From Nitrososphaerota archaeon (GTDB lineage Archaea > Thermoproteota > EX4484-205 > JAAOZP01): DNA of 64,000 nt. Below the pieces are notes generated by a model. It had not been told where the DNA came from. It saw only the letters and a list, made by a program, of their open reading frames with translations, and did not search any database. The position numbers and the translations under genes are program-made. The stretch covers positions 128,001 through 192,000 of the forward strand of contig JAAOZP010000012.1 of the NCBI GenBank assembly GCA_011605725.1, read 5' to 3'. Numbering within the stretch: position 1 is the stretch's first letter; each line of letters begins with the position of its first letter. This document shows positions 17,297 to 33,892 of this stretch, one piece after another.

Positions 17297-18514
17297 CTAC
17301 GGTTTTAACGGGTAGAAGCCGTTTTCATAAGCCGACCTGTAGGCGGCGAGAATGTTTTTCAGGAGGCACGTTAGCCTGAATATTGTGAACCTGGTTGAAA
17401 ACGTATCCACCATTCCTAGCGAAAACCAGAATATTCTTTTTCACATGCTTGTAAACCTCCTCCGGACTACCGGCGTGAAACACCTTCTGAGTGTCCACGC
17501 CTCCACCCCAGAAAGCAACCTGGTCGCCGAACTCTTTCTTCAACCTCTCCGGCTCCATGTTTCTCGCAGAGATTTGAACAGGGTTCAGTATGTCGACGCC
17601 AGCATCTATCAGGTCCGGGATAAGATCATGTATTGAGCCGCAGGAGTGGAGGAAGACGAATATTCTCGAATGCTTCTTCACGTATTGAAAAAGCTCTGTG
17701 TGACACGGCTTTAAGAGTTCCCTGTATGTTTTCGGTGAAACCTGGGGTCCCGTCTGAATTCCGAGATCATCCCCGAAACCTATGACCTGCACGTGGTCTT
17801 TCAAGGCTTCAACATATTTCTTCACATTATGCATTAAAACACTCATCATCCTGTCAAGAATCGCTGAGGCCAAGCTCCTTCTGGAGGAAAGATCTATGAG
17901 CCAGTTTGACCACCCTCTCAGGCCCTGACCCCACTCGTGAACACTTCCCGCGCCGAAGAAGTGTAAAGCGAAACCCGTGGATGCTCCGCTCTCCCCCTTA
18001 GGCTTGAAACATACTCATCCCCTACTTTATGGCTCTCCCAATCATAATTCTTCAACGCTTCAGGACTCTCTGCTTTCTCAAGAGGATGATAGACACTGTC
18101 GAAGTATAGGCTGCCCTTAGGCATTTTTGAAACCACTATTCCTCTTCCGTTTCTAATAACCCATCCGCCGGCACCATCCGGCTCAGGGTTAAACCAGGCC
18201 GGGACCTCGCACCTAGTTCCATCCGGCAGAAACTATTCTCTCCACGTTTCGTCTCCGGGTCCGCATGGTTCAAGCGTCCTGGTGAGGGGAATCACGTCTA
18301 CTTTAAACAATTCAAGTATCTCTTTCTCAGGCTCAGCTAACTGTTGGCCAACATCGTAAACCCTTACAACACCCTTCTCCAAGCCGAGGTGTTTCTTCAG
18401 TCTAGCGTAAGCTATTGCCATTATACCGGTTGAAGGCATTGAGCCTAAGTCTATTGGAACCCTGTCAGGCTCCTCACGCCTCAGCGCCGTCAGAACCCTA
18501 GTTCTAGAGTCCAA
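17297..18514 (-). pseudogene. Disrupted URO-D/MtaA-CmuA family gene
   Basis: Three track ORFs join into one protein. Lesions: in-frame TAG at 18233-18235 (WRE*FLPDG); a frameshift near 17980 (AEH/TGFALHFFG...LRGWSNWLID); an extra A near 17355-17360 (the corrected frame reads VPPENILAAYRSAYENGFYPLKP*). Confidence 0.85.
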
Positions 18515-18675: not shown

Positions 18676-19452
18676 ATGCATCCTGTGGTGGTTGTTGAAG
18701 GAGGCTGTCTGCCAGAGGTTTGGGAGAAGTCGATAACCGAGCTCTGGAGCAAGGGTGTGAACATTAGGACTGAATACGGGAACGACAGCAAGGACTGCAC
18801 GATGCTAATGATAATAAGAACCCCTTTAGCGGAGCCGAGAATCCATAAGGCTGGGCTGATGGTTGGCAAGCTTTCACAGCTTGAAGAATACGTTCAGGAG
18901 GTTTGCAACGGGATACATGACTCTTACGTGGAGAGAGGAATTTGGCCCTATACTTACCATGAACGCTTACGCTCCTACAAGTATTGCAGCGAGACGATCG
19001 ATCAGGTAGACTACATAGTTAGAAAGCTGGCGGAAGCACCTTACTCCAGGAGGGCGCAGGCGATAACTTGGAAGCCTTGGGTTGACCCGAAGATTGAAGA
19101 CCCGCCCTGCCTCCAAAGAATCTGGTTCAGAGTTTACGGAGACAGACTTATCATGGAGACCTGCTGGAGGTCGAGGGACGCTTTGAAAGCAGCCTTCATG
19201 AACATCTATGCTCTCACAATTCTTCAGAAAAACGTGGCGGAAGAGTTGTCGAGGAAGACTGGAAGAACCATTGTTCCAGGCGAATACGTGGATTTCTCAA
19301 ACTCATACCACATATATGAAGCTGATTTCGAAAAGGCGGAAAGCCTAGTTAAACGCTCCAAGGAGTCAGGGTGGGAGACACGCTCCTGGAGCACTGAGCA
19401 GTTTAAAAGCATTGTTGAAATGGAGACGAGGGTTTCAAAAGCCTCAGGCTAA
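18676..19452 (+). CDS. thyA: Archaeal-type thymidylate synthase (ThyA family)
   Basis: YTYHERL, SRRAQAITW, DPPCLQ (catalytic Cys), RSRD...FMN, SYHIY. Confidence 0.8.
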   Translation: MHPVVVVEGGCLPEVWEKSITELWSKGVNIRTEYGNDSKDCTMLMIIRTPLAEPRIHKAGLMVGKLSQLEEYVQEVCNGIHDSYVERGIWPYTYHERLRSYKYCSETIDQVDYIVRKLAEAPYSRRAQAITWKPWVDPKIEDPPCLQRIWFRVYGDRLIMETCWRSRDALKAAFMNIYALTILQKNVAEELSRKTGRTIVPGEYVDFSNSYHIYEADFEKAESLVKRSKESGWETRSWSTEQFKSIVEMETRVSKASG

Positions 19453-20324
19453 CCTATTCTGGAGATTACCTCCAGCAAACCCTGCATCGAGATGTATGAG
19501 GCAGCGTACGCACCTGAGCTGAACTCTTTTCCACCAGGGGTTCTCAACATGGGCTCCTTAAGACTCCTCGTTACTCTCCAGTGGGTCTCGAGTGAAACAT
19601 AGCCTTCATACCCAATCTCCTTTAAAGCCTTTAGGTTTTCCCCTATTTTAGCCTGGCCCTCCCCGACTTTCAAAAACCTGGTTTCAGAACCTTCTCTAAC
19701 ACCGTCCTTAACATGCACATGCTTTATAAACTTCTTCACGTAGTTAAACCCCGTCGGAAAAGGGTCTTCACCCTCCTCATCCATCAGCTCATTACCTGGA
19801 TCCCACAGCGCCTTGACAGAGCTCGCACCCAGGGAGTTTATGAAGTCCGCCAGCATCCTCCCGTTCCCGACGAAGGTTGAAGGCTCATTCTCAACAATTA
19901 TCGTAACACCCTGCTTCTCAGCCATTTCAACAATCCTTCTGAATTTCTCAATTATGGTTCTCTTGTAATCCTCATATCTTCCTTTCTTCCAGAATGTGAA
20001 AGCCCTGACCAGTTGAGTGTCCAGGTGGCCAGCAAGCTCCAACGCGCTTCTAAATATCTCTATGTGTTTCTCGTATTCCTCTGCCGAATCAATGTCGCAT
20101 TTGAAAGTTGGAGACGCTATTGCACACACTTTTAAACCGTTATCTTGGAGAAACTTTTTCAAAACATTTTTCTCCCCAAGGATTTCTGGAAAACCCTTGT
20201 CAAGTATTGTTCTAATCTCTATAGCATCTATGTTGAAACTCCCAGCGAATTCCCTCACCTCACCCAGGTCTTGCGAAACCTCATCCGTTATGAACGATAG
20301 TTTAAATTTAATGTTCAACTTCAA
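19449..20324 (-). CDS. Sugar phosphate isomerase/epimerase (xylose isomerase-like TIM barrel)
   Basis: ENE, WDPGN, HVHVKD and SLETH metal ligands. Confidence 0.85.
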   Translation of the reverse strand: MKLNIKFKLSFITDEVSQDLGEVREFAGSFNIDAIEIRTILDKGFPEILGEKNVLKKFLQDNGLKVCAIASPTFKCDIDSAEEYEKHIEIFRSALELAGHLDTQLVRAFTFWKKGRYEDYKRTIIEKFRRIVEMAEKQGVTIIVENEPSTFVGNGRMLADFINSLGASSVKALWDPGNELMDEEGEDPFPTGFNYVKKFIKHVHVKDGVREGSETRFLKVGEGQAKIGENLKALKEIGYEGYVSLETHWRVTRSLKEPMLRTPGGKEFSSGAYAASYISMQGLLEVISRIG

Positions 20325-20333
20325 ATAACCTCC

Positions 20334-21386
20334 CTACTCCACCAGTGGTAGAGCCACTTTACTCCCAGTTCTATGAGCCCTGTATATGGCGAGGACAATC
20401 TCCAGCGATTTCCTCGCCTCCTCACCGGGGACTGCAGGAGGCCTATCCTTCAGAATCGACTCAATAAAGTCCCTAACAGTCTCATCGTGTCCAAGGAACG
20501 GGGTTACTGTCTCCATTCTTTCCCCCACGCTTTCTTTACTCACAACCGTCCCGCTTTCCTCACTCCACTCCCTTGCAACCCTCTTATCACTCCCTATGAT
20601 GACGGATTTTCTGCTACCGTAGATCGCGACCCAATCCTCCTGGGGTCGAAGGTCAACGCTCCCTAGTATGTAGCCTATTGCACCGCTCTTAAAACGGAGT
20701 ATTGAAACAGCGATGTCCTCGGTTTCAATACTGTGCATCCTAGTATCGTATATCCCATAGAGATATTCCACCGGCCCCATTATCCATTGCAAAAGATCCA
20801 CAAGGTGGATTGTTTGATTTATTAAGGCTCCTCCGCCCTCAGTAGCCCATTTTCCACGCCAAGACTTTGCGACTTCATCCGCATGGTAGTAGGTCTTGTC
20901 TTCACGATACCATTTTACGACGGCTTCACCGTATATCGGTATTCCGAAGTCACCGTTTTCAAACTCTCTCTTCACCCTTTGAACATCCTGCGAGAAACGG
21001 TTTTGAAAAACTATTGCAAGTTTCACGCCGTTTTTTCTACAGGCACTAATCATTTCGTCCGCCTGCTTTAGAGATATTGCTATTGGCTTCTCGCAGAGAA
21101 CATGCTTAAAGTGTTCTGCAGCTTTTATCGTTATTTCAGCATGCAGGTGGTGGGGCGTACAGATGCTTACCGCATCAACACTCCTGTCTTTCAACAGGTC
21201 TTCATAGTTCTCGTAAACACTGGCATGCTTAAGGCTGAACCTCTCAGCCAGAGCCTTCGCTCTTTCAACCCTGCTGTCGGCGAGAGCAGTTATCTCAGCC
21301 ATACCTGATTTCAAATAGCCGGAGACGTGGGAAGCCGCAATCCCGCCGCACCCGATTACCCCGACTCTCACTTTCTCTCCGCCCAT
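20334..21386 (-). CDS. Gfo/Idh/MocA family oxidoreductase
   Basis: GCGGIA, CTPHHLH, CEKP, GGGALINQTIH. Confidence 0.9.
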   Translation of the reverse strand: MGGEKVRVGVIGCGGIAASHVSGYLKSGMAEITALADSRVERAKALAERFSLKHASVYENYEDLLKDRSVDAVSICTPHHLHAEITIKAAEHFKHVLCEKPIAISLKQADEMISACRKNGVKLAIVFQNRFSQDVQRVKREFENGDFGIPIYGEAVVKWYREDKTYYHADEVAKSWRGKWATEGGGALINQTIHLVDLLQWIMGPVEYLYGIYDTRMHSIETEDIAVSILRFKSGAIGYILGSVDLRPQEDWVAIYGSRKSVIIGSDKRVAREWSEESGTVVSKESVGERMETVTPFLGHDETVRDFIESILKDRPPAVPGEEARKSLEIVLAIYRAHRTGSKVALPLVE

Positions 21387-21482: not shown

Positions 21483-22754
21483 ATGGAGAGGGAGAAAAGA
21501 TTCATAAAGATTTTTGAAGAAATCCCCAACACTCCAGTGATAGATATTCACACGCATCTGAACCCTGTGAGGCTGAAAGCTAAGGATTTATCTGAAATAA
21601 TCCTATACCATTACATTGCTACGGAGCTTGCTTCCTCAGGAATGCCTAGAGAAATACTTGACATAGAGGATCCTGATGAAAGAGTTAGAAGGGTCATCCC
21701 ATTTCTTAAAAACGTGAGAAACACGTCGACCTTCTGGGCTTTAAGAAGGGTTTTCAGCCTCTTTGATTTTAACGAGGAGCTGACTGAGAAAAGCTTTGCT
21801 CTGCTTAAAGACAAATTTATGGATTTTGAGAAAAACTTTGACGGAGTCAGTTTTCTGAGGAAAAGGGTCAAGGTTGAGAAAGCATTTCTAACACTACAAT
21901 TCACGGATACTGGTTTAACTTTCGACACTTCCTTCTTCACAGGCTCCCTGAGGCTTGAAAGACTTTCGAAGGAGTTTTCGAAGGAATCACTCGGAATGCT
22001 TGAGAACCTTTTCTCTTTAAAAGTAAACAGTGTTAGAGGTATGAGGGAGGCTGTAGGAGAAGTATTTGACAAGTTTAAAGAACGTATTTCGACAATCACC
22101 ATTAGCTTGAATCCTAGTGAAACCATTGTTACAGACCATAGAGAGGAGCTTGTTGACGAGGCGATACGGAAGACCGAGACGGGGGGAAGGCTTAGCCTAG
22201 AGGAGAAAAACGCGCTTCTATCATTCGTAGTAGAAGAATTTCTCAAACTAATTAAGGATGAAGGGATTGTGTTTCAGCTGATGCTGGGTGTTGAAAGACC
22301 TGTTGTTGGAGCCTCTCCACCGGATTACGCGATAGTTGTGAACGAACCCAGCCAACTGCTCTCGCTCTGCCCATTGTTCCACAAGTATAAAGAGGTTAGT
22401 TTCGACCTTATATCTGCAAGCAGAACGCAGACTCATGAGCTTGACGTGATTGCTAAAAACTACAGGAATGTTTACGTATCAGGCTTCTGGTGGTACTCAT
22501 ACTATCCCTCCATAATGATGGAGAGAACGGTTGAGAAGCTCCAAATGCTGCCTGTGAACAAGTGGTGTGCGTTCTTCAGCGATGCCCAGGTTCCAGAATG
22601 GGTTTTCGGTAAGGCGCAGCTGGTTAAACATCAGCTGGCCATTACCCTAAGCGATTTAGTTGAGAAAGAATATTTAGATTTGCAGCTTGCACTTGAAACA
22701 GCAAGAAGTTTGCTTTACGAGAACGCGTTAGAAATCTATCGTTTGAAACGATAA
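21483..22754 (+). CDS. uxaC: Uronate (glucuronate) isomerase-like, amidohydrolase superfamily
   Basis: IDIHTH, YHYIATELASSG, FQLMLG, WWY, FFSDA; divergent from canonical UxaC. Confidence 0.65.
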   Translation: MEREKRFIKIFEEIPNTPVIDIHTHLNPVRLKAKDLSEIILYHYIATELASSGMPREILDIEDPDERVRRVIPFLKNVRNTSTFWALRRVFSLFDFNEELTEKSFALLKDKFMDFEKNFDGVSFLRKRVKVEKAFLTLQFTDTGLTFDTSFFTGSLRLERLSKEFSKESLGMLENLFSLKVNSVRGMREAVGEVFDKFKERISTITISLNPSETIVTDHREELVDEAIRKTETGGRLSLEEKNALLSFVVEEFLKLIKDEGIVFQLMLGVERPVVGASPPDYAIVVNEPSQLLSLCPLFHKYKEVSFDLISASRTQTHELDVIAKNYRNVYVSGFWWYSYYPSIMMERTVEKLQMLPVNKWCAFFSDAQVPEWVFGKAQLVKHQLAITLSDLVEKEYLDLQLALETARSLLYENALEIYRLKR

Positions 22755-22818
22755 GCTAGCACGCTATTTGTCGAACGCGATTACCATGCTCTCAAGACCC
22801 TGCGTGTTGAAGATAAGC

Positions 22819-24414
22819 CTATACTAACTGTTTAAGCCTTCTTATATGACCTTTTCCAACACCTCGAACAGCACACCCGTTTTTCAAATACTCGATTATC
22901 TTCCGGTCGTCGACTATGTTAAAAGCATCCACGATTGCAGGCGTACCCCCGTTCATTCTTAGGACTTCCTCAGGCTCTAGTTGAAGGTAAACCTTATGCC
23001 TGACGGCGAAGACTATTGCGTCAACCCCTTTAACAACCTTCTCTAAATCCTGCTCAACCCTCAGGTTCTTCAAATCCTCCTGATTCCTGAATTGCTTTGC
23101 CAGTGAGAACTCGTCTTCATCCTGCTGGGCGAACTCCGGCCAAACCTTCACGTAAGGGTCGTGAACCCTTATTTCAAAACCCATTTCCCTAAGCCTTCTT
23201 ATCAGGATCTCTGAAGGAGAATGACGAGTATCACCTATATCAGCAAGGTAAGAGGCTCCGAGAACCGCTACAGTCGAGCCTTTAATATCCCTACCCGCCT
23301 CTCTAAGAGCATCCGCAACCAGATCGGCGGTGTGAAGCGGCATTTTATCATTAATGTTTATCGCTTCAATAGTGTACGGCACGCCTTCGCAACATCCGAA
23401 TATTTCCTTGAAAGCCCAGTTAGCCAGCACGCTATCCTTCGTTAAACAATACCCGCCTACGCCTAATCCAGGGTTCATAATGTTACTGTGGGTTGGGCGA
23501 ACCCTTATTCCGGGTAGAACCTTCCAAAGATCTATACCTATTTCCTCAGCCCTAAGCGTCCAATCATATATGAAGGCTATGTTAACAGCCCTGTAGGAGT
23601 TTTCAAGTACCTTCGCAACTTCGGAGGCAGTAGTATTTTCAGCCTCGTAGAGAGGGTAAGTTATCACTCGCGACAAGAATCTTCGCGCAAGCTCCGCACT
23701 CTCCGCATCTATCCCAGCCCATGTTCTCCAGAAGTCCCTTATCGAGCTGACGTATTGTCTGCCCGGCATAACCCTTTCATAGGAATGAGCTAGATGCGGC
23801 GGCTTAGTTATACCCCTTTTCTCCCTCTCCTCCTTGAGAATCGGAAGCACGATTCTCTCGCAGGTTCCAGGGGGCACGGTGGTTTCAACCAGAACGAGAG
23901 CATCCTCCTTCATATACTTCCCTATCGTTCTGCAGCCGGCTTTGAAAGCATCCAGCTCAACATATCCCGCCTCAGCCTTTCCGAAAACAGGTTTCACAGC
24001 GTCAAGCTGTATGTCGACAACAATTATGTCGGCAAGACCCAGCGACTCCTCGCAGCCAGTAGCCATCAGGGTCTTCTTTTCAAGAACCGTCCTCCGGAAT
24101 ATTTCAGGTATCTCCGGATCCTCTGCACTCACAGGGGGTTTCCCCGAGTTTATGTACGGGATTTTCCAGTAGGATCTTTTAGAAGGCCTCTGATAGCCAA
24201 GTACGAAGTACGGAGAATCCTTCGCATCCGCGACGACGGCAGCCATAACCGCTCCGACGAAACCAAGCCCCATGACAGTAACTATCTCTCTACCGTGGGC
24301 ACGCTGATCCTCAACTATCCCCACTATTCTCGCAAACTCAGCCTTCAACTCATCTTTAGACGGAATACTATATGTAACGCCGTCCGGTGAAACAGAATAC
24401 TCTGGCATTTCCAA
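22819..24414 (-). CDS. Nucleotide-sugar dehydrogenase (UDP-glucose/GDP-mannose dehydrogenase family)
   Basis: GLGFVG, ETTVPPGT, HSYERVMPG, KVLENSYRAVNIA, GVGGYCLTKD (catalytic Cys), DTRHSPS. Confidence 0.88.
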   Translation of the reverse strand: MEMPEYSVSPDGVTYSIPSKDELKAEFARIVGIVEDQRAHGREIVTVMGLGFVGAVMAAVVADAKDSPYFVLGYQRPSKRSYWKIPYINSGKPPVSAEDPEIPEIFRRTVLEKKTLMATGCEESLGLADIIVVDIQLDAVKPVFGKAEAGYVELDAFKAGCRTIGKYMKEDALVLVETTVPPGTCERIVLPILKEEREKRGITKPPHLAHSYERVMPGRQYVSSIRDFWRTWAGIDAESAELARRFLSRVITYPLYEAENTTASEVAKVLENSYRAVNIAFIYDWTLRAEEIGIDLWKVLPGIRVRPTHSNIMNPGLGVGGYCLTKDSVLANWAFKEIFGCCEGVPYTIEAININDKMPLHTADLVADALREAGRDIKGSTVAVLGASYLADIGDTRHSPSEILIRRLREMGFEIRVHDPYVKVWPEFAQQDEDEFSLAKQFRNQEDLKNLRVEQDLEKVVKGVDAIVFAVRHKVYLQLEPEEVLRMNGGTPAIVDAFNIVDDRKIIEYLKNGCAVRGVGKGHIRRLKQLV

Positions 24415-24425
24415 CCCTCCGGATG

Positions 24426-26759
24426 CTACTCTCCATGTTTAAAGATTATTAAGCTTTTCCACGCGCTTCCCGGCGATCTCCATCCTTCGTCAACAACCAT
24501 CCCGTTAAGGTTCTCCCTGTCGATTATCGTCCTTTTCGCAAGCGAACTCTTAACAAAGCATTTTTTCAGAATGCTGTTCCACACTATAGCACCCCTCTCG
24601 ATCCTGCTTTCCTCAATCATCGAGTTATGCAGGACGCACCAAGGCTTAACGTGAACCTCGCCCCTGAAAACGATTTCCCCACTCAGAAAAGAATTCACAC
24701 CCACATAGAAATGTACATCACCATACTCCTCCAAGCCAGGTATCTCGGTGAATGCTAAAGACCTTAACTGCCTTGTGAACTTTTTATCAAACTTCTTTAA
24801 GCCACCCTCTTTCTCAGCAACCATCATCATAGTCTGTAGAAAACGTTTCACCCTGGGTTCCACATATATTCGCGCACCCAGGTCAACAGTAACACCGAAA
24901 ACCTTTTCAAGAGCCTCCAAAGAAAACCCTTCTAACGCTTCCAAGCCGGAATGATCCAGCTCTGGAGTTCCCCTTATTCGAGCACAGGCCTTACCGTCTT
25001 CAAGGTAAAACACCATATTCCTCATAGGCTTGAAGGCCTCGACTTCAGCCTGAAAGACATCGCATTTCTCAAGAACCGCCTTCTCTCCAACTGTTGAGTC
25101 CACTATAACTGAGTCAACTATCCTAGCGTTCTCCCCAATCCTGACAACACGCGGGGGCATAGCTATGATGAAAGAATTACTTATGCTGGAACCATCACCT
25201 ATAGTCACATCCCCCCTTATGTCAACTCTGCCTGAGAAAACAACACCTTTCCCTATCCTGTCAGCGTTAAAATCCTCGCCCACAGTTATTATAGCATCCT
25301 CTCTCACCACGCAACCTTTCTCCGTAAGCATTCTAGCCAGCCTCTTAGATTGCAGCATCGCTCCAACCCTAGCCTCACTCCTGTAGTCATATCCTTCTCC
25401 AACACCCTCTTCACCTTTAAGCAGATATATGTTAATCCTCTCCCCTTTTGAAACAGCCTCTTTAGAGACCTCTGGCAGGAAGTATTCTCCGCCAGCATGC
25501 CTCTCTAAAACATATACTCCAGGAGGGCTTGGCCCAATCCTTCTGCACAAATTTATCGAGAGCAGCTCCTCCCTGGATAACCCATGCCTCTTTTCACCTG
25601 GTTTTAAGGAGAAAATTTCAGAGTTCGGCACCACGATCTCTGAACCATCTTTTAAAACCCGCCCGTAGTTAGGAGCGTCAACATCCCTAATCACGTTAAG
25701 ATAAACCTCAACGTTCATCGCCATCAACCCCGTGTTCCTCTCCCTTATAGCGTTAAGATAGTCTGTTGAAACCTTGAAGTCGAGAAGGTTCACCTCCAGC
25801 GAACCGATGTTTCTCCTCTGCTCCTCAGTAACACCGATTTCATCCTGCTCCTTTATGTCTAGAAACTCGTCTGACATTGGGTCGAAAAGCAGAGCCTTCC
25901 CGTCTAGCCTAACCCTTCTTTCCTCAAGCTGCTCTCTTGAAAGAACTATTTTCCCCCCTGGAAGCGCTTCTCTTATAGGGTGGTATATGCATACTTTGTC
26001 TCCAGCCCTATCGACGTCACGCCTACTTAGGAAGACGTATGATGCCCATTCACCGTATTTACCAGTATCCACTTCTGGAAGCCTGAGCGCAATCAGTTCC
26101 CCGCTTCTAATCATCCTGTTTATCTTCAGCGATTTCTCATCCTTAACATCCTTCTCATCCACCAGTCCTAGAACCTTCTTTGGATACCTGACTATCCTCC
26201 CATACATGAATGGGTCTCCCTTGTCTGACGTTACTATAGTGATCTTAGCACCGGAAGACACGTGACTCTTTATAATGTTCCTTATCTCTTCCGGAGGCAC
26301 GGTTGGCACATCCCCGTAGTAGATGAAGACGTATTTCGCTCCACTTTCCTCAACAAGCTTCTTACCCTCAAAGCTGGTTGCTGCAGCACCCGTACCCTTG
26401 TCACCAGGATTGTCGAAGAAAATCCTGACGTTACTCCATTTCGCAACTATGGCTTTCAGATCCATCAACGCCTTGAGGTCTATAAGGTCCCGCTCATCCC
26501 TACACTCCTCAATACTCTCCCCAACTCTTCTGCCTGCTGAAAGAAGAATCGATTTCACTAGGCCGCACTGCATTATGGTGCTGAATATAGTGTCCAAGTA
26601 GGTTTTCCTCCAGAAAAGGTCTCTCATCGCCGGTTTCGAGATGGTGTCAGTATACGGGTCTAACCTGGTCCAGAGCGGTGTAGACCTGAAGCCTGAGCCG
26701 CCGGCAGGTACAATTGCAACAGTGCTTTCCCTAATCTTTTCTTCAGACTTGCTTCTCAT
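24426..26759 (-). CDS. Enlarged GlmU-like sugar-1-phosphate nucleotidyltransferase with left-handed beta-helix C-terminal regions
   Basis: PAGGSGFR...SKP, GTGAA, YGDVP, YGRIVR, ERNTG, EYFLP, followed by hexapeptide repeats (IGKGVV, IGDGSS, IGENAR, VGEKAV). Confidence 0.7.
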   Translation of the reverse strand: MRSKSEEKIRESTVAIVPAGGSGFRSTPLWTRLDPYTDTISKPAMRDLFWRKTYLDTIFSTIMQCGLVKSILLSAGRRVGESIEECRDERDLIDLKALMDLKAIVAKWSNVRIFFDNPGDKGTGAAATSFEGKKLVEESGAKYVFIYYGDVPTVPPEEIRNIIKSHVSSGAKITIVTSDKGDPFMYGRIVRYPKKVLGLVDEKDVKDEKSLKINRMIRSGELIALRLPEVDTGKYGEWASYVFLSRRDVDRAGDKVCIYHPIREALPGGKIVLSREQLEERRVRLDGKALLFDPMSDEFLDIKEQDEIGVTEEQRRNIGSLEVNLLDFKVSTDYLNAIRERNTGLMAMNVEVYLNVIRDVDAPNYGRVLKDGSEIVVPNSEIFSLKPGEKRHGLSREELLSINLCRRIGPSPPGVYVLERHAGGEYFLPEVSKEAVSKGERINIYLLKGEEGVGEGYDYRSEARVGAMLQSKRLARMLTEKGCVVREDAIITVGEDFNADRIGKGVVFSGRVDIRGDVTIGDGSSISNSFIIAMPPRVVRIGENARIVDSVIVDSTVGEKAVLEKCDVFQAEVEAFKPMRNMVFYLEDGKACARIRGTPELDHSGLEALEGFSLEALEKVFGVTVDLGARIYVEPRVKRFLQTMMMVAEKEGGLKKFDKKFTRQLRSLAFTEIPGLEEYGDVHFYVGVNSFLSGEIVFRGEVHVKPWCVLHNSMIEESRIERGAIVWNSILKKCFVKSSLAKRTIIDRENLNGMVVDEGWRSPGSAWKSLIIFKHGE

Positions 26760-26807
26760 GCTGAAAACCGTGGAGTAAGAGCTTTTTTAAAGTTTGAGGA
26801 GAGTTTT

Positions 26808-28379
26808 TCAAATAAGACAAGCACCCTCAACAGGGCTGACGAGAATAATGCCGTTTCTCCGCCTACTCTCGTCACGATAATACTCTCTCCCCAACACATC
26901 CATAACCTTATTAACAGCCTTCTTATCCACAAGGATTTCGACACAGCCTCCTAGACCGGCACCTACTATGGATGCCCCTAGAGTTCCCGGAACCTTTAAC
27001 GCAGTATCGACAAGGAAATCAGTCTCCTCAGTTCCACAACCATAATAGCCCGACTGAAACTCCAGTCTAGCGTCGCCTCCTAAACGGGTAAGCTCTTCTA
27101 AGTATTCATCAGTCACTCTCACACGCCATTTCACTCCTGACTTAACCACTCTGTCAGCGTCGTGCGAAACATTCATCAGCCTTCCGAAAAGCTCCACGTC
27201 ACCTGGTAGAACCCATTCTGTTTTCCTGCTCCGCTCACACTCTGAAATCCCGAATAAGCATACTCCTCTCAAGTCGTATCCTTCCCTCGGCTCCTCATGC
27301 TCTTTAAACAGTTTGCTTAACCATTCTTCTTTCTCAGGCAGTAGACTTCTAAGCTCACTCCTACTTATTCTCTCAGGCAGCGATTTAATCATCCTATATA
27401 TTTCGGAAGTCTCGAAGTTCTCAGGATTAATATCTCTCAAATACTCAAACTTCCTCAATTCAGGGTTAAATTTCTTCATAAGCTCAAATCCAAACTCATA
27501 CGTAGAAACCTTTTCGTTAAAAATACTCCGAGCCCCCGTCATCTTGCTTGCCGCAACAAACGAGTTACACAGAATAATGTTGACACCGGTTGGAAAAGGT
27601 ATGTAAGATATTTTGAACGGAAAGAAGCCTATATGACTCACGAAGCCTTTTTTCGAAAAAAGCATAGCCGCCTGATCTCCCCATCCACCCCTAGTCCCCA
27701 CGTACCATTCCCCTATGCCAGTGTATTCAACCATCTTCTCCCTCGGGATTTCAAGGCCATTCAGGCTTGAAACCGTCAAATATGTTGCAACGACTAATGC
27801 TGATGATGAGGAAAGCCCTGCGGACCTAGGTATATCCCCATAGCAGACTATGTTTGCGCCTAGAAGCTTTTTCTTGTAGGAGCCACCGTTCATGTAAACA
27901 TTCTGCAGATAGCATACGGATTTAACATAGTTTATCCAGGATTTTCTCTCACTCTCCGTTTTCTTCTCAATGTTTTCCTGAGTCCACTTTCTCCATTCAT
28001 CCACTGTAGATATTTTTTCTGCGGGCAGTTCCTCCCCGATTTCAAACCTTCCTGATTCAAAATTTTCCTCCGCATTATGAATCTCGATGAAGGAGTCCTC
28101 TCTTCCCTCAGCAACCATTATGACTTCTCTCGGAATAACTATCGGGTTTACGAAGCCTCCTCTGTGATCAACATGCCTCCCCATCAGGTTCACCCTACCC
28201 GGAGCCCTAACTATAATCACCCTTCTCTCAAAACCATATGTTTCGCCAAACATCTTCAACACCCTCAGAATCACCCTCCTCCTTTCTTCCATGAAATCCG
28301 GCCCATACATCTCAGCCAGCCTACTAGCCCCGGGACCCGTGTTGAGGAAATCGATCCATGAGGAAACAGTTCTCAACAT
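26808..28379 (-). CDS. GHMP galactokinase-family sugar-1-kinase with an altered substrate motif
   Basis: APGRVNLMGRHVDH, PRSAGLSSSSA, GWGDQ, GAGLGGC. Confidence 0.85.
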   Translation of the reverse strand: MLRTVSSWIDFLNTGPGASRLAEMYGPDFMEERRRVILRVLKMFGETYGFERRVIIVRAPGRVNLMGRHVDHRGGFVNPIVIPREVIMVAEGREDSFIEIHNAEENFESGRFEIGEELPAEKISTVDEWRKWTQENIEKKTESERKSWINYVKSVCYLQNVYMNGGSYKKKLLGANIVCYGDIPRSAGLSSSSALVVATYLTVSSLNGLEIPREKMVEYTGIGEWYVGTRGGWGDQAAMLFSKKGFVSHIGFFPFKISYIPFPTGVNIILCNSFVAASKMTGARSIFNEKVSTYEFGFELMKKFNPELRKFEYLRDINPENFETSEIYRMIKSLPERISRSELRSLLPEKEEWLSKLFKEHEEPREGYDLRGVCLFGISECERSRKTEWVLPGDVELFGRLMNVSHDADRVVKSGVKWRVRVTDEYLEELTRLGGDARLEFQSGYYGCGTEETDFLVDTALKVPGTLGASIVGAGLGGCVEILVDKKAVNKVMDVLGREYYRDESRRRNGIILVSPVEGACLI

Positions 28380-28467
28380 TCTGCTGAAAATCGTCTTGAG
28401 AATTCATATTTAAGCGTTGATTAACGGTTTGCGAATTCTTATATATCTATCAAGAGTTAGGGAAAGC

Positions 28468-29487
28468 ATGCCTGTCAAAGTGGCGGTTTATGGATTGGGG
28501 CCTATAGGGACACTCATAGCCAGAAAAGTTTTAGAACGGGAAAACCTTGAATTGGTAGCAGCTTTCGAGATAGACCCTTCTAAAATAGGCATGGATGTCG
28601 GTGAAGCGATTAGTATAGGTGAGAGGATTGGCGTAATTGTTTCAAGAGAGTCTGATGCAGCCGAGATCCTGAAGATAAGTGGAGCAGATGTCGTGCTTCA
28701 CGCAACCTCCTCCCACCTGGATAAGATATACCCGCAGATCGTTAAATGCGTTGAAGCAGGTGCTGATTTAATCTCGACTTCAGAGACGCTGGTAAACCCT
28801 TGGTATCGATACCCTAAGCTTGCCTCAGAAATAGATAGAATGGCTAGGGAAAACAATGTTTCAATAATGGGTGCCGGTGTAAACCCGGGGTTCGTGTTCG
28901 ACGCTCTACCAATACTTATGACGCTTGTTTGCATAAGAGTAGACTGTTTGAAAGTCATAAGGTCTTTAGACGCTGGGAAGAGAAGACTTTCTTTCCAAAA
29001 GAAATACGGGCTTGCCTTAAGCGTCGAGGAGTTTAGGCATAAAATGGATAGCGGCGAGATAACGGGACACATAGGGTATGGAGAATCCGTTGACCTTATA
29101 GCATCTGCGCTGGGAGTAAACCTAACTAGGATTGTTGAGGGACAGGAACCAATAGTCTCAGCGAAACTGTTGAAAACTCAATACTTTGAAATAATGCCTG
29201 GAAAAGTCTCGGGAATACATGGCTACGGAATAGGATATGTTGGAGAGAAAGAATTCATCAGGGTTGAGCTGATAGCTGAAGCCGGTAGGGAAGAGTTTGA
29301 AGAAGTAATCATCCAAGGGGAACCGCCGGTGAAATGGAGAAGTACAGGTATCCCAGGTGATACTGCTACTGCTGCAGTGGTGATCAACCTTATTCCGAAG
29401 GTTTTAGAAGCAAGGTCAGGCTTACTTAGGATAACGGATATTTCCCTGCCCTCAGCCTTCTCAAATTTAAAAGCCAGTAATTCTTGA
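28468..29487 (+). CDS. NAD(P)-dependent amine dehydrogenase (2,4-diaminopentanoate dehydrogenase / DapB_N family)
   Basis: GLGPIG, HATSS, GVNPGF, GHIG, GDTATAA. Likely start ATG 28468 (track 28417). Confidence 0.75.
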   Translation: MPVKVAVYGLGPIGTLIARKVLERENLELVAAFEIDPSKIGMDVGEAISIGERIGVIVSRESDAAEILKISGADVVLHATSSHLDKIYPQIVKCVEAGADLISTSETLVNPWYRYPKLASEIDRMARENNVSIMGAGVNPGFVFDALPILMTLVCIRVDCLKVIRSLDAGKRRLSFQKKYGLALSVEEFRHKMDSGEITGHIGYGESVDLIASALGVNLTRIVEGQEPIVSAKLLKTQYFEIMPGKVSGIHGYGIGYVGEKEFIRVELIAEAGREEFEEVIIQGEPPVKWRSTGIPGDTATAAVVINLIPKVLEARSGLLRITDISLPSAFSNLKASNS

Positions 29488-30797
29488 AAACCATGGAGAT
29501 GAGCTACCTGGAGAGGACTAAAAAATCCATGGAACTCTTTGAAAAAGCTAGGAAACATATTCCCGGCGGATCGGCTTACTCAATAAGGTATTTCGAACCG
29601 TATCCTTTCTACGTTAGCAGGGCTAAAGGCAGCAGGATCTGGGATGTCGACGGCAACGAATACGTTGACTTCTGGATGGTTCATTTCGCAGCCGTACTGG
29701 GACACGGCTATAGGCCTGTGATTGAAGCTGCGAAGGAACAGCTTGAGCATGGTGCACACTTCGGCTGGTGCAACGAGTGGGAGGTGAAATGGGCGGAAGC
29801 AGTGTGCAGATGGTTCGACGTGGATATGGCTAAGCCAGCCAATAGCGGGACGGAGGCGAACATGTATGCTGTCAGGCTTGCGAGAGCCTACACTGGAAGA
29901 AGAAAGATCGGGAAGATGGAGGGGGGATGGCATGGAGGATACGACGGTCTGCATAAGGCGGTTAACTATCCCTATGATAAGCCGTCGTCTTTAGGCTTAG
30001 CCTGTGTTGAAAACATTGTTCCACTCCCGTTTAACGATCTTGAGGCAACGATAAGAATAGCTGGGAAAGAAGATCTGGCAGGCATAATTTTGGAACCGGT
30101 TCTCGGATCGGCGGGAGTTATTCCGGCGAGCGAAGAGTACTTGAAAGGCCTTAGGGAATTCTGCAGTAGGAGGAACATAGTGTTGATATTCGACGAGGTT
30201 ATCACTGGGTTTAGGCATCCCGGCGGTATGCAGAATTATTTCAAAGTCAAGCCGGATATAACGACCATAGGTAAAACAGCCGGAGGACAGTATTTCGCTG
30301 GAGCGGGAGGAATATGTGGAACAGCCGAGATAATGAGTCTACTCGACCAAGTCGAGAGACCAGAATTTTGGAACCGTTCATTCCACGGAGGAACGTATGT
30401 GGGTAATGCTTTGACAATGCGCGCCGGATATGTTACGATAAACGAGCTTGAAAAGAAGAGTGGAGAAGTATATTCCTACATTAATTCTCTCGGAGAATAC
30501 GGTAGAAGACGGATCATGGAGGTTCTTGAGGAAAACCGTTTCGAGGCCTACGTCACTGGATTACTGTCTATGATAGGCTTGCATTTCACAAGGGAAAAGC
30601 CGTTTAACGGGTTGACGGCGGAGAGAACTAAGAATAGAGAGTTAAGTAGAAAATTATTCAACCACATGCTGCAGAAGGGAATAGTATATCAGAGGCCCGA
30701 GACCCCGCACTTCGCAGTCTCGACTGCTCACTCAATGGATGAGATGGAAAGACTCGTGGAAGAACTAGATACCTTTATTAAAAAGGAAAGAGGATGA
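29484..30797 (+). CDS. Class III PLP aminotransferase (GSA aminomutase-like)
   Basis: WDVDGNEYVD, NSGTEA, FDEVITGFR, GK PLP-lysine, HGGTY; overlaps the upstream stop. Confidence 0.85.
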   Translation: MKTMEMSYLERTKKSMELFEKARKHIPGGSAYSIRYFEPYPFYVSRAKGSRIWDVDGNEYVDFWMVHFAAVLGHGYRPVIEAAKEQLEHGAHFGWCNEWEVKWAEAVCRWFDVDMAKPANSGTEANMYAVRLARAYTGRRKIGKMEGGWHGGYDGLHKAVNYPYDKPSSLGLACVENIVPLPFNDLEATIRIAGKEDLAGIILEPVLGSAGVIPASEEYLKGLREFCSRRNIVLIFDEVITGFRHPGGMQNYFKVKPDITTIGKTAGGQYFAGAGGICGTAEIMSLLDQVERPEFWNRSFHGGTYVGNALTMRAGYVTINELEKKSGEVYSYINSLGEYGRRRIMEVLEENRFEAYVTGLLSMIGLHFTREKPFNGLTAERTKNRELSRKLFNHMLQKGIVYQRPETPHFAVSTAHSMDEMERLVEELDTFIKKERG

Positions 30798-30849
30798 GCC
30801 TACAATAATTAGAGAAACATGCTTATCAAACGTTTTGAATAATGCAGAT

Positions 30850-31680
30850 TCACGGTATGCATTGAGGCTCAGGATTCTTTGAACTTTTTAGACAGGCCTC
30901 TATGAAGTCTTTAGAGGTTGTTGACCAAGCATACTTGGTCTCTATCTCTTGAACAAATATTCTTGTTGCAAGCAACTGGTATACAGTATCGTGAGCCTCG
31001 ATAGCTGCAGTACAATCCCTTAAAAGTATAATGTTGTACCCCCTTTCACTCATAGCCCTAACCCCGTAATCCCTATGTTGTAGACACATGTTGGTGGCGA
31101 AACCAGCGTAGAAAAGATGGAGTTTCCCTAGTTTTTTAAGGATTCTGTGTAACTGTCTCCCCGACCTTACTACATAGTCACCCGACTGGGGTGCAAGAGG
31201 CTCTGCAATCATCAGTTTCTCCCTGTATATGTGCTCCCAAGCTTCTCGAGGAGGTGAAAAACCCCTGTTGAAAACGGAAAAAACCCCTATTCTATCGACG
31301 AACTCTTTGGGAGGCCATTCTGGGTCTACTGAAGCATATACTGGGAAGCGTTCCTCATCCCCTTTTTCGAAGCAGCAGGATGATTGAGGGTATTTTTCAG
31401 CCACGTTCGACGAGGGGGCATGTATAACTGTTACACCGGTTCTCCTAGCAGCATTCACCACCGGAGCAATCTTCTCCTCCACTATTCTTCTCGACCTTGC
31501 CGAGTAGCTTTCACAATAATGAATACTCCAGCAATCCACTAGGATTAAAGCGCTTTCAGCAACAGGCATTTCAAGAAGCCTCTCAACGTAGTGAAAGTCT
31601 TCCTCCAAACATCCGTAGGGTTTCTCCTCAAGGTAAAGGCGGTAGTATCTAGCGGGGACTTTCAACACGGTTTTTTGCAT
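30850..31680 (-). CDS. Isochorismatase-like cysteine hydrolase (divergent)
   Basis: LILVDCW, VIHAPS, GFATNMC, LLRDCT. Likely start 31680 (track 31788). Confidence 0.7.
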   Translation of the reverse strand: MQKTVLKVPARYYRLYLEEKPYGCLEEDFHYVERLLEMPVAESALILVDCWSIHYCESYSARSRRIVEEKIAPVVNAARRTGVTVIHAPSSNVAEKYPQSSCCFEKGDEERFPVYASVDPEWPPKEFVDRIGVFSVFNRGFSPPREAWEHIYREKLMIAEPLAPQSGDYVVRSGRQLHRILKKLGKLHLFYAGFATNMCLQHRDYGVRAMSERGYNIILLRDCTAAIEAHDTVYQLLATRIFVQEIETKYAWSTTSKDFIEACLKSSKNPEPQCIP

Positions 31681-31796
31681 AAGTACGTGTTTAAACAACC
31701 TGTTTAAATTCCTTTCCGCTCTGTTGAAGCATGTATCCTTCAAACCGTTTAGCATAGGGATGGGAAAACTTAAGAAAACGCGAAACACCCTTTACA

Positions 31797-32357
31797 ATGA
31801 TGAAGAAGAATTCAAAACTGATCGGTATAGATGGCTCCGCATTGCTGATTATCGATGTGCAGGAGAAGCTTTTCCCCTTGATGAACAGGAGGGAAGAGGT
31901 TTTGAGGAACATTGTGAAACTAATAAGGTTTTGCAGAAAATGTGAAATACCCATCATAGTGACGGAGCAGTATCCTAAGGGGCTTGGAAGAACGGTGCGG
32001 GAAATAATGAGTGAACTTGGAGATGTTAAACCTATTGAGAAGACGAGTTTCAGCTGTTTCGGTTCTCAAGAATTCAAGAATACTTTGAGAATGTTGAGAG
32101 TAAAAACTTTAATAATTGTCGGCATAGAGGCGCATGTCTGCGTAATGCAGACGGCGCTTGAAGCCCCGAGGAAAATAAGAGTCTGCGTCGTGGCTGACGC
32201 AGTCTCTTCCCGTGCAATCGGAAACATCCATCTAGCTTTGCAAAGGATGAGGGATTCCGGAATCATAATTTCTTCCACAGAAATGGCGATGTATGAATTG
32301 TTAAGGGATTCGAAGTCGAGAATGTTCAGAGAAGTGAGGGAGCTCTTAAAAGCATGA
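31797..32357 (+). CDS. Isochorismatase family hydrolase (YcaC-like)
   Basis: IIDVQEK, TEQYPKGLG, EKTSFS, EAHVCV (D-K-C triad). Confidence 0.9.
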   Translation: MMKKNSKLIGIDGSALLIIDVQEKLFPLMNRREEVLRNIVKLIRFCRKCEIPIIVTEQYPKGLGRTVREIMSELGDVKPIEKTSFSCFGSQEFKNTLRMLRVKTLIIVGIEAHVCVMQTALEAPRKIRVCVVADAVSSRAIGNIHLALQRMRDSGIIISSTEMAMYELLRDSKSRMFREVRELLKA

Positions 32358-32382
32358 CACTAATCTTTAAATCAGGAAAACA

Positions 32383-33138
32383 GTGCTTCGAATGGTGATG
32401 CAGACGGGTAAAAGGCGGATAGTGGATGCAAACACCGTCTTCGGAGCATATCCCAAAAGAAAAACAGACGTTTCGCTTAAAAATCTTCTCAAGATAATGG
32501 ATGTTAACAGGGTTGAAAAAGCTTTAACAACCTCCCTGAAAGGAGCTTTCTACAGCTATGAAGAAGGAAACGAGGAAACCCTTAAAGCATGTAGAGCCAA
32601 CAATAGGCTTATTCCCCTAGCTACAGTCGACCCTAGAAGATTCGCCGGTGACCGGGGGGAAATTGAGAACCTTGTTGGAAGCGGTTTTAAAGGAATCAGG
32701 CTTTTCAAGGATATTCAAGGCTATCCGCTTGACTATTCTCCATTAATCGAAATTATTGAAAGCATGAATGGGTTGGGAGTACCACTTCTTGTCCCCTGCA
32801 ACGAATACGGGTGTATAACACTCCTTTCAAGACTCACTGCAGGAAAGGAGTATCCGGTTATAGTTCTCGGATGCACGTATTCTCTCCTAAGCGAGTTCAT
32901 AGTTTCAGCCAGGAGGAATAGAAACCTGTATGTTGAAACTCGTCTTCTAACTTCTTCCGACGCTATTGAGGTTCTTGCTGAAAAAGTTGGAGCAGATAGG
33001 CTAATATTCGGCTCCGGAATCCTTCTTGAGTATTTTCAGGCATCCTACAGGATGGTTGAATCAGCCAGAATCCGTGATGAAGACAAGGACTTGATTCTTT
33101 CTGGAAACATCCTTAGGATTATTAAGGAGGCTTGTTGA
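32383..33138 (+). CDS. Amidohydrolase_2-like protein lacking canonical metal ligands
   Basis: IVDANT replaces D-x-H-x-H; GFKGIRLF and GADRLIFGSG are present. Confidence 0.7.
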   Translation: MLRMVMQTGKRRIVDANTVFGAYPKRKTDVSLKNLLKIMDVNRVEKALTTSLKGAFYSYEEGNEETLKACRANNRLIPLATVDPRRFAGDRGEIENLVGSGFKGIRLFKDIQGYPLDYSPLIEIIESMNGLGVPLLVPCNEYGCITLLSRLTAGKEYPVIVLGCTYSLLSEFIVSARRNRNLYVETRLLTSSDAIEVLAEKVGADRLIFGSGILLEYFQASYRMVESARIRDEDKDLILSGNILRIIKEAC

Positions 33139-33139
33139 A

Positions 33140-33892
33140 ATGCGCATTATAGACATACATGCTCACTACGGTGAATGGTTCTTTCCGATCTACAGGTCGT
33201 CGAAAAAGAGCATAGTGGAGATGATGAATCATCACGATATTGAGGCGGTAATCCTATCCTCCAGCAAGGCAATAACTTACGACATGGTGGAGGGAAACAT
33301 GGATTTAGACATGATCCTTGATTCAAACAAGGGTTTATACGGCTACGTGTATGTTAACCCAAACTATCCGGAGCTCTCTAAGGCTGAAATCGAGAAGTAT
33401 CTTGCAAACCCGCTTTTCAAAGGTGTTGGCGAAATACATCCGGATTATTCCGGTCTCCCGGTGGATTCGGAGGAAAGCATTTCAATTCTAATAGAGGCAG
33501 CTGAATACCGGAAACCGTTTCTAATACATACTTACAGTTTGGAAAACGTGAGAGCACTTGTTGAACTCGTTAAAAAGTTTCCAGACAACGTGTTCATAGC
33601 GGGACATATGGGTGGAACGGTTGCGTCTGGAACAGGGTTAAGCTGGAAGAAGGCTATTGATGCCGCTAAAGAGTACTCCAACCTTTACCTAGAGATATGT
33701 ATGACGCTTTTTGAAAAGGGTAAGCTTGAGGAGGCTGTTGACAAAGCAGGTGCCGACAAGATCATGTTTGGCAGCGACCTAACATTGTTAAACCCTGCCC
33801 ACACGATCGGAATGATCCTAAGCGCAGAGATCTCGAGAAACGATAGAGAAAAAATATTCTATTTAAACGCTAAAAGGGTTTTCAGGCTTTAG
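33140..33892 (+). CDS. Amidohydrolase_2 family metallohydrolase
   Basis: IIDIHAH, GEIHP, LIHT, GHMGG, IMFGSD. Confidence 0.85.
   Translation: MRIIDIHAHYGEWFFPIYRSSKKSIVEMMNHHDIEAVILSSSKAITYDMVEGNMDLDMILDSNKGLYGYVYVNPNYPELSKAEIEKYLANPLFKGVGEIHPDYSGLPVDSEESISILIEAAEYRKPFLIHTYSLENVRALVELVKKFPDNVFIAGHMGGTVASGTGLSWKKAIDAAKEYSNLYLEICMTLFEKGKLEEAVDKAGADKIMFGSDLTLLNPAHTIGMILSAEISRNDREKIFYLNAKRVFRL

Follow-up and report, generated by a model that had tools for sequence, protein, structure and literature searches.

A conserved three-gene module that would turn a free sugar into an oxidised nucleotide sugar was found in a contig of a hot-spring archaeon of the Nitrososphaerota (assembly GCA_011605725.1, contig JAAOZP010000012.1, positions 128,001–192,000). 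The window, meaning the whole 64,000-nucleotide stretch analysed here, came from a genome (G000) that was 93% complete and belonged to Ca. Brockarchaeia. The module comprised three intact open reading frames (ORFs):

26808–28379, minus strand: GalK/GALK2-like anomeric GHMP kinase, 523 amino acids (aa)
24426–26759, minus strand: giant GlmU-like sugar-1-phosphate nucleotidyltransferase, 777 aa
22819–24414, minus strand: long-type nucleoside diphosphate (NDP)-sugar 6-dehydrogenase of the uridine diphosphate (UDP)-N-acetylhexosamine (HexNAc) group, 531 aa from a TTG start (orthologues began two codons further downstream)

With somewhat less than even confidence, we read the module as a linear route for the salvage of an N-acetylhexosamine-type sugar (N-acetylglucosamine, GlcNAc; N-acetylgalactosamine, GalNAc; or a close relative), which would lead from the sugar through the sugar-1-phosphate and the UDP-sugar to a UDP-HexNAc-uronate.

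The gaps between the genes were short (48 nt between kinase and transferase, 11 nt between transferase and dehydrogenase), and the order kinase–transferase–dehydrogenase was kept in six further genomes of the genus at 83–93% identity. This indicated that the arrangement was due neither to chance nor to an assembly artefact. A promoter and terminator scan, made with a bacterial model, stayed at chance level.

The order comprised 26 genomes, of which 13 encoded the kinase and 12 the giant transferase. These two sets were equal except for G017, which held only a more distant kinase and no giant transferase. The long-type dehydrogenase was present in 11 of the 12 module genomes: adjacent in the genus, 1.7 kb away in G023, 3.6 kb away in G022, and, in G019 and G021, on a different contig. 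Outside the order, all three genes were found together in five loci (L082, L094, L146, L152, and L166) and pairs of them in L067, L070, L144, L148, L151, and L153. Loci L082 and L094 were titled bacterial, and the bacterial origin of the metagenome contigs was inferred from neighbouring genes. The co-occurrence within the order and the five outside loci showed that the module is real, and the joint conservation on which the original prediction depended was thus borne out.

Seen from the dehydrogenase side, four close relatives had a module partner: in three cases the kinase lay upstream at a distance of one or two genes, and in the fourth the giant transferase was present; four more distant dehydrogenases stood alone with no module partner. 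The GTDB scan from the dehydrogenase side used single-sequence patterns and reached close relatives only. Beyond Brockarchaeia, the genome-wide coupling of the kinase and the long dehydrogenase was weak (9 of 50 kinase genomes), and among 151 Planctomycetota genomes 8 and 6, respectively, were positive, with three in common, one of which was the centre genome.

Kinase–transferase fusions were also sought, and in a second Brockarchaeia family (five genomes) the two proteins formed one polypeptide with the transferase at the N-terminus. The length was 1127–1339 aa in four of these genomes, and the fifth fusion was cut by a contig end. In a quick tree, which was unrooted and had long branches, the kinases of both Brockarchaeia families grouped together (Shimodaira–Hasegawa-like approximate likelihood ratio test, SH-aLRT, 96) and with those of Thermoprotei (SH-aLRT 99). 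A separate gain of the kinase in each family was therefore unsupported. Standalone Thermoprotei kinases (L020:7686–9530 and L037:509–2356) carried an N-terminal beta-helix piece that matched the C-terminus of the transferase (probability 91%), and a longer piece of this kind was seen in P0017 (probability 97%); the giant transferase was not found in those Thermoprotei kinase genomes. Since these kinases retain a piece of the transferase and group with the Brockarchaeia kinases, it is plausible that a fused ancestor existed and was split later. In Latescibacterota-like genomes, the fusion partner of the giant transferase was another GlmU-like domain of the ordinary kind (L070:1638–5822, L152:1–1486, P0135, and P0137; 1394–1460 aa).

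The kinase scored above the cut-offs of the GHMP and GalK-binding Pfam models. Its predicted structure (predicted local distance difference test 90.7) had the GalK fold, with a template modelling score of 0.70 to human GalNAc kinase (GALK2, 2a2c), which was the best match by sequence, profile, and fold. The signature read GxHxDHRGG. Residues R62, H69, D71, and D235, the ATP loop, and the Gly loop were retained, and the anomeric Arg (R62) and the catalytic Asp (D235) were invariant. The G-E-H-x-D-Y signature of GalK was absent: the Glu position was occupied by Arg, Met, Thr, or Val (R68 here) and never by Glu in 116 parsed homologues, the Tyr position was His, and the following position (R73) was Arg in 115 of the 116. 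A second Arg, R230, was found in 118 of 120 homologues. The score on the galactokinase model TIGR00131 was 157 bits against a cut-off of 226.65, and that on the Fkp model NF009948 was 19.4 bits against 721. The sub-cut-off TIGR00131 score and the lost signature ruled out an ordinary galactokinase, in agreement with the altered kinase of the original prediction.

The GT.GG loop before the catalytic Asp was common to the kinase and 2a2c, whereas GalK of P. furiosus has GVPCG there; T229 and G231 of this loop were invariant and aligned to 2a2c. A loop of the GALK2 type makes room for an N-acetyl group, and the signature Glu of GalK binds the 6-OH of the sugar. Plant galacturonic acid (GalA) kinase also has no GalK Glu and carries H-x-D-H-x-G-G. 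Given the GALK2-like loop and the lost Glu, the kinase looks likely to tolerate an N-acetyl group at C2 and to be unusual, possibly accepting an anion, at C6. The family had at least 579 matches in GTDB, and the best 80 belonged mostly to Planctomycetota, Armatimonadota, Verrucomicrobiota, Latescibacterota, and Bacillota; it is a mainly bacterial family. A literature search found no paper on 'AbGHMP' (9ulx).

Every top sequence and fold match of the transferase was GlmU. It shared the fold and the uridylyltransferase motifs (GTG, YGR, E304, E340/N342, and GEY, with Asp458 at the Asn of GVN) with bacterial GlmU and archaeal TIGR03992. In contrast to GlmU, it was 777 aa long, its motifs were separated by large inserts at about 193–293 and 362–415, and its left-handed beta-helix comprised two segments, in which the acetyltransferase motifs H..Y.G and N.GAG were not found. 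With 78 bits on the GlmU model (cut-off 367), it scored far below every cut-off. R341 and R464 were invariant in the giant transferases and only there, and GlmU has no Arg at these positions. The giant transferase was very rare, with 13 proteins at E < 1e-30 (about 12–13 clusters) among 1.84 billion 50% clusters; in an Atlas search with the insert, all matches scored under 0.9. Many bacterial kinases of the family were fused instead to a short, near-standard GlmU-like domain that keeps the GlmU motif NAQGEYYLTD.

The dehydrogenase passed the cut-off of TIGR03026 (215.7 versus 189.8 bits) and stayed below every equivalog cut-off; on NF040825 it scored 203 bits against 750. It shared TIGR03026, the catalytic Lys, Asn, Cys, and Asp (K268, N272, C323, and D327), and the ERxxPG motif with the UDP-HexNAc 6-dehydrogenases (Cap5O/WecC, P. 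horikoshii 4r16, M. mazei 3g79, WbpA, and TviB). The nearest solved chains were 3g79 and 4r16, both HexNAc-uronate dehydrogenases. Five of nine residues of the UDP-N-acetylmannosamine (ManNAc) dehydrogenase group clearly matched, namely E177, R214, P217, R275, and V319 (Glu117, Arg152, Pro155, Arg211, and Val254 in the numbering of PMC4794789), and E271 matched the binding-site Glu207. However, the enzyme carried an N-terminal extension, and His242, Arg244, and His257 of the group were not kept (R306, T308/H309, and Y322, respectively); Arg244 is the N-acetyl contact in UDP-ManNAc dehydrogenase. The thioester-hydrolysing Tyr10, the NAD ribose-binding Asp29, and Lys320 are 98–100% conserved in the characterised NDP-sugar dehydrogenase families (PMC4794789), and in the window they were replaced by F52, Q75 (followed by R76), and L390. 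Tyr10 was Phe in 118 and Asp29 was Gln-Arg in 117 of 120 homologues, so that the changes are family-wide and extend beyond the kinase-linked members. Gln-Arg in place of Asp29 is an NADP-like pattern. The large subfamily with these replacements (window 22819–24414 and P0144–P0263) often stood alone, outside glycan clusters. Of four such standalone members whose surroundings were inspected, three had NAGPA at a distance of no more than about 7 kb; two of these loci were near-identical.

The neighbours of the homologous loci pointed to amino sugars, although many of these loci are kin and do not give independent counts. The run in L166 comprised an SSF transporter, DegT, GH84, two Gfo genes, and a ROK regulator, then the dehydrogenase, transferase, and kinase, and finally another Gfo. 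The SSF, DegT, GH84, and ROK genes were co-oriented with all three module genes, and the last Gfo was a 39–42% relative of the Gfo of the window. In L082, the three module genes were followed by NAGPA, DegT, SSF, and a second DegT; in L146, NagB and SSF were found upstream of them. NAGPA lay beside the module in five loci (four archaeal, one bacterial), and no signal peptide was seen in it on reading by eye. In L088 and L090, a WbpA-type dehydrogenase and an acetyltransferase that we take to be WbpD-like came directly after the kinase, and in L144:8425–19107 the kinase and dehydrogenase stood directly before a run with lipid A genes that comprised accD, bamA, skp, lpxC-fabZ, lpxA, lpxI, and a Gfo gene. 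The same dehydrogenase type followed a GlmU-like gene and a phosphomutase in L153, which suggested that the dehydrogenase can be fed a neutral UDP-sugar. In a Planctomycetota clade, NagA-like, GlmU-type acetyltransferase domain, and IMPase-family genes were located upstream of the kinase. A recurring cassette (L057:6578–11659; also L043, L045, L051, L075, and L079) combined an IMPase-family phosphatase, a GlmU-type acetyltransferase domain, often a NagA-like gene, and the kinase, with a NagB-like gene downstream. Such a cassette is possibly a mutase-free route to GlcNAc-1-phosphate.

Salvage by a sugar-1-kinase and a pyrophosphorylase is known for fucose, galactose, GalNAc/GlcNAc, N-acetylmuramic acid (MurNAc), and the plant uronates. 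The gene trio and the fusions supported this logic for the module. The original prediction had named a free uronate or HexNAc as the substrate. The GlmU motifs of the transferase, the UDP-HexNAc grouping of the dehydrogenase, and the amino-sugar genes nearby favoured the latter, so an N-acetylhexosamine-type substrate seems more likely than a plain uronate such as GalA or glucuronic acid (GlcA), for which the case was weaker. From its fold and motifs, the kinase would form the sugar-1-phosphate with ATP. The GlmU-like transferase would then couple it to a nucleotide, probably UTP, and the dehydrogenase, perhaps using NADP+, would oxidise C6, so that a UDP-N-acetylhexosaminuronate is formed. 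The product might be modified by Gfo and DegT or enter glycan synthesis.

Several observations weigh against this linear route. The loss of the GalK Glu and the arginines gained in the kinase (R73 and R230) and the transferase (R341 and R464), all invariant, would suit an anionic substrate. Moreover, the genome holds two TIGR03991 GlmU-like proteins, NagA, and a second NDP-sugar dehydrogenase, so that the module would not be needed for plain UDP-GlcNAc. The dehydrogenase has lost Tyr10, Asp29, and Lys320 as well as the N-acetyl contact Arg244, and the substrate of CalS8, an enzyme that shares the ER motif, is thymidine diphosphate (TDP)-glucose. No glycosyltransferase was recognised beside the module from the first residues of its neighbours, read by eye. 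We gave some weight to a module whose substrate would be an amino sugar that is already acidic, namely an N-acetylhexosaminuronate, and consider this acidic-substrate reading as a whole unlikely, though a serious contender.

The main rival to the linear route is a convergent salvage of this kind, which we regard as rather unlikely. The kinase and transferase would activate a free N-acetylhexosaminuronate (GlcNAcA, GalNAcA, ManNAcA, or a 2,3-diamino derivative). The dehydrogenase would arrive at the same UDP-uronate by oxidising UDP-HexNAc that comes from an ordinary GlmU. The lost GalK Glu, the kinase and transferase arginines, and the H-x-D-H-x-G-G pattern reminiscent of plant GalA kinase fit this scheme, as does the ordinary GlmU-like domain fused to or located beside the giant transferase in the Latescibacterota loci and L153, which suggested that the two transferases take different substrates. 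However, the same kinase arginines occurred in kinases fused to near-standard GlmU-like domains, the placement of R73 and R230 facing C6 is presumed, and a single linear route is the simpler explanation for three co-oriented genes that follow the order of the reactions. We know of no salvage kinase for N-acetylhexosaminuronates.

The acidic sugar might instead be activated and then reduced, with the deviant dehydrogenase running in reverse with NADPH to yield a neutral NDP-sugar. This would account together for the arginines, the gene order, the Gln-Arg at Asp29, and the lost Tyr10. However, the characterised members of the dehydrogenase family are effectively irreversible oxidases, the same substitutions were found in the large standalone clade with no kinase nearby, and the dehydrogenase type occurred in only the nine of 50 other kinase genomes noted above; we consider the reductive route quite improbable. 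To our knowledge, a route of this kind, in which nucleotide sugars arise from sugar acids by reduction, has not been described. More improbable still, the anion could be a 6-phosphate or 6-sulfate. The kinase would then form a hexosamine 1,6-bisphosphate, and a phosphatase would bypass phosphoglucosamine mutase, as HddA/GmhB do for heptose. The phosphatase–acetyltransferase–kinase cassette, seen in Planctomycetota, Armatimonadota, and one Hadarchaeota bin, is in line with such a bypass, and GlmM was above cut-off in none of five cassette genomes versus three of four fusion genomes, a small sample confounded by lineage. Against it, all five cassette genomes held sub-cut-off phosphomutase homologues, and there was no phosphatase in the module locus of the window.

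Three further genes adjoin the module, one of which the original prediction had linked to the pathway:

21483–22754, plus strand: uronate-isomerase-like (UxaC-like) amidohydrolase, 423 aa, convergent to the module
20334–21386, minus strand: Gfo/Idh/MocA oxidoreductase (Gfo), which travels with the UxaC-like gene and the TIM barrel
19449–20324, minus strand: xylose-isomerase-like TIM barrel (sugar epimerase/isomerase class), completing the UxaC–Gfo–TIM cassette

The predicted layout, with three closely spaced co-oriented genes converging on the UxaC-like gene and a divergent Gfo/TIM pair, was recovered with every ORF intact. The dehydrogenase and the UxaC-like gene were 64 nt apart tail-to-tail, and the latter and Gfo 96 nt head-to-head. 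The convergent cassette came next in five of the six further genomes of the genus, and the sixth contig ended there. The UxaC-like protein scored only weakly on the uronate isomerase model (43 bits versus a cut-off of 387), and its closest solved chains were 4i6v, followed by BH0493. With UxaC (BH0493 and T. maritima 1j5s) it shared the HxH metal motif (H23 and H25), H43/Y44, and D367, all invariant in six orthologues, and the aromatic pair at 336–337. It differed in having no Arg two residues past the catalytic Asp (Q369 here, His or Tyr in orthologues) and in being much closer to the uncharacterised 4i6v. The three genes probably form a sugar-acid cassette, and its link to the module is no more than suggestive.

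Two explanations make use of this cassette. In the first, GalA or GlcA itself would be converted to an NDP-uronate in the manner of plant salvage, and UxaC would draw on the same pool of substrate. The cassette adjoined the module in 10 of the 12 module genomes, in two families and two gene orders, and the kinase site looks anionic. However, UxaC was missing in module genomes G019 and G023 (91 and 93% complete) and present with no kinase in G011, G018, and G020. It lay near only two of 75 kinase loci, both of Brockarchaeia, whose kinases form one clade, so the linkage may have been inherited once. In addition, the transferase was GlmU-like and not USP-like, and UxuA and UxaA were not found in the five genomes tested, that of the window among them. 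Activation of a plain uronate thus appears improbable. A place of UxaC in the pathway was likewise less well supported: it adjoins the module, but the linkage is confined to Brockarchaeia and fails in two of the module genomes.

In the second explanation, the module would be a catabolic entry. After activation and C6 oxidation, perhaps with C3/C4 deamination by Gfo and DegT, a NAGPA-type hydrolase would release the free acid for the UxaC-like isomerase, the TIM epimerase, and the Gfo reductase. The first steps are compatible with the linear HexNAc route. In favour of it are uptake-type contexts (the SSF transporters in L082, L146, and L166, the ROK regulator, and GH84), the NAGPA genes beside the module, and the window itself, which is a sugar-use island. 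However, NAGPA was not found in G000 at its 93% completeness, UxaC was absent from two NAGPA-bearing module genomes, other homologues lay in surface-glycan or lipid A gene clusters, and the route would cost ATP and UTP. We hold this catabolic role to be about as doubtful as the activation of a plain uronate.

The amino-sugar genes of the genome were compatible with the scavenging of such sugars. Full-length GlmS was not found in G000, and within the genus eight genomes had only GlmS, seven had only the module, and none had both. An unrelated DegT gene showed the same split, so the exclusion is probably one difference between sub-lineages. The pattern shows an amino-sugar scavenging sub-lineage and not a module that replaces GlmS. 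The split (G000–G016) also tracked genome size and other sugar genes. G000 encoded NagA, MurQ, a NagK-like kinase, two TIGR03991 GlmU-like proteins, and, in a glycosylation locus, the second NDP-sugar dehydrogenase. A role of the module as the sole route to UDP-GlcNAc was dropped given NagA and the two TIGR03991 proteins. The latter, 'alternative GlmU' proteins above cut-off, were located at L157:9281–10561, about 1.4 kb before the window, and at L162:4198–5439. MurNAc-6-phosphate etherase MurQ (above cut-off) and the NagK-like kinase lay at about 59.3–64.1 kb of contig C3 of G000 (L160:273–5109), next to genes that, judged by eye, resembled a DUF1343 muramidase and a deacetylase. This cluster possibly serves archaeal scavenging of peptidoglycan sugars.

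A conserved block (28417–35126) was found upstream of the module, comprising an Ord-like dehydrogenase, a class III aminotransferase, two isochorismatase-family genes, two amidohydrolases, and DegT:

33882–35126, minus strand: DegT-family sugar aminotransferase, a candidate accessory gene that shares 52% identity with the DegT adjoining the module in L082, a bacterial locus

The ORFs of the kinase and the Ord-like dehydrogenase were divergent and separated by just 37 nt, so the TTG start listed for the latter is probably too far upstream. On the other side, a URO-D-family gene was broken at 17325–18514 on the minus strand (ORFs 18233–18514 and 17325–17873) through a frameshift or assembly error; its relatives had a single 408-aa ORF.

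The closest known systems are human GALK2/AGX1 and Bifidobacterium NahK with a GlmU/GalT-type partner, which are alike in the predicted anomeric kinase followed by a pyrophosphorylase acting on N-acetylhexosamine. NahK has another fold. Compared with GALK2/AGX1, the kinase had about 23% identity (structural alignment), replaced GalK Glu and Tyr, and two invariant arginines; its partner was a GlmU-fold protein, and a third, oxidising gene was added. Fkp/FKGP (L-fucokinase/GDP-fucose pyrophosphorylase) and the zebrafish glucuronokinase/pyrophosphorylase (PMC3938481) join a transferase and a GHMP kinase in one polypeptide, as relatives of this locus do. However, compared with Fkp/FKGP, the kinase here was GalK-type, the transferase GlmU-type, and the genes were split. 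A possible uronate salvage is shared with plant GalA and GlcA kinases and USP (PMC2823444; PMC6329318), whereas the transferase here was not USP-like and the neighbours were amino-sugar genes. As far as sequence comparison goes, the module resembles GALK2/AGX1, NahK/GlmU, and Fkp salvage and appears to lie outside GalK, Fkp, GlmU, UDP-ManNAc dehydrogenase, and UxaC proper.

The literature search, which covered few subscription papers, found no study of the kinase family, the giant transferase, the dehydrogenase subfamily, or an archaeal three-step version. The main text of the Brockarchaeota description gives no uronate or galactose routes (PMC8065059). The suggestion that no archaeal equivalent had been described was thus retained, but the module is not specific to archaea and its kinase family is mostly bacterial. 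What is new is the very rare giant transferase, the third gene encoding a dehydrogenase with its loss of Tyr10, Asp29, and Lys320, the split form, and the amino-sugar context. The three enzymes are soluble, thermostable, and directly assayable. If the HexNAc-uronate reading is true, a HexNAc-uronate kinase and its matching transferase would be useful for the enzymatic synthesis of rare nucleotide sugars. A functional result would give a role both to this widespread family of kinases and to the large subfamily of dehydrogenases in which three near-invariant residues are missing, and it would show how these archaea deal with amino sugars in the absence of GlmS.

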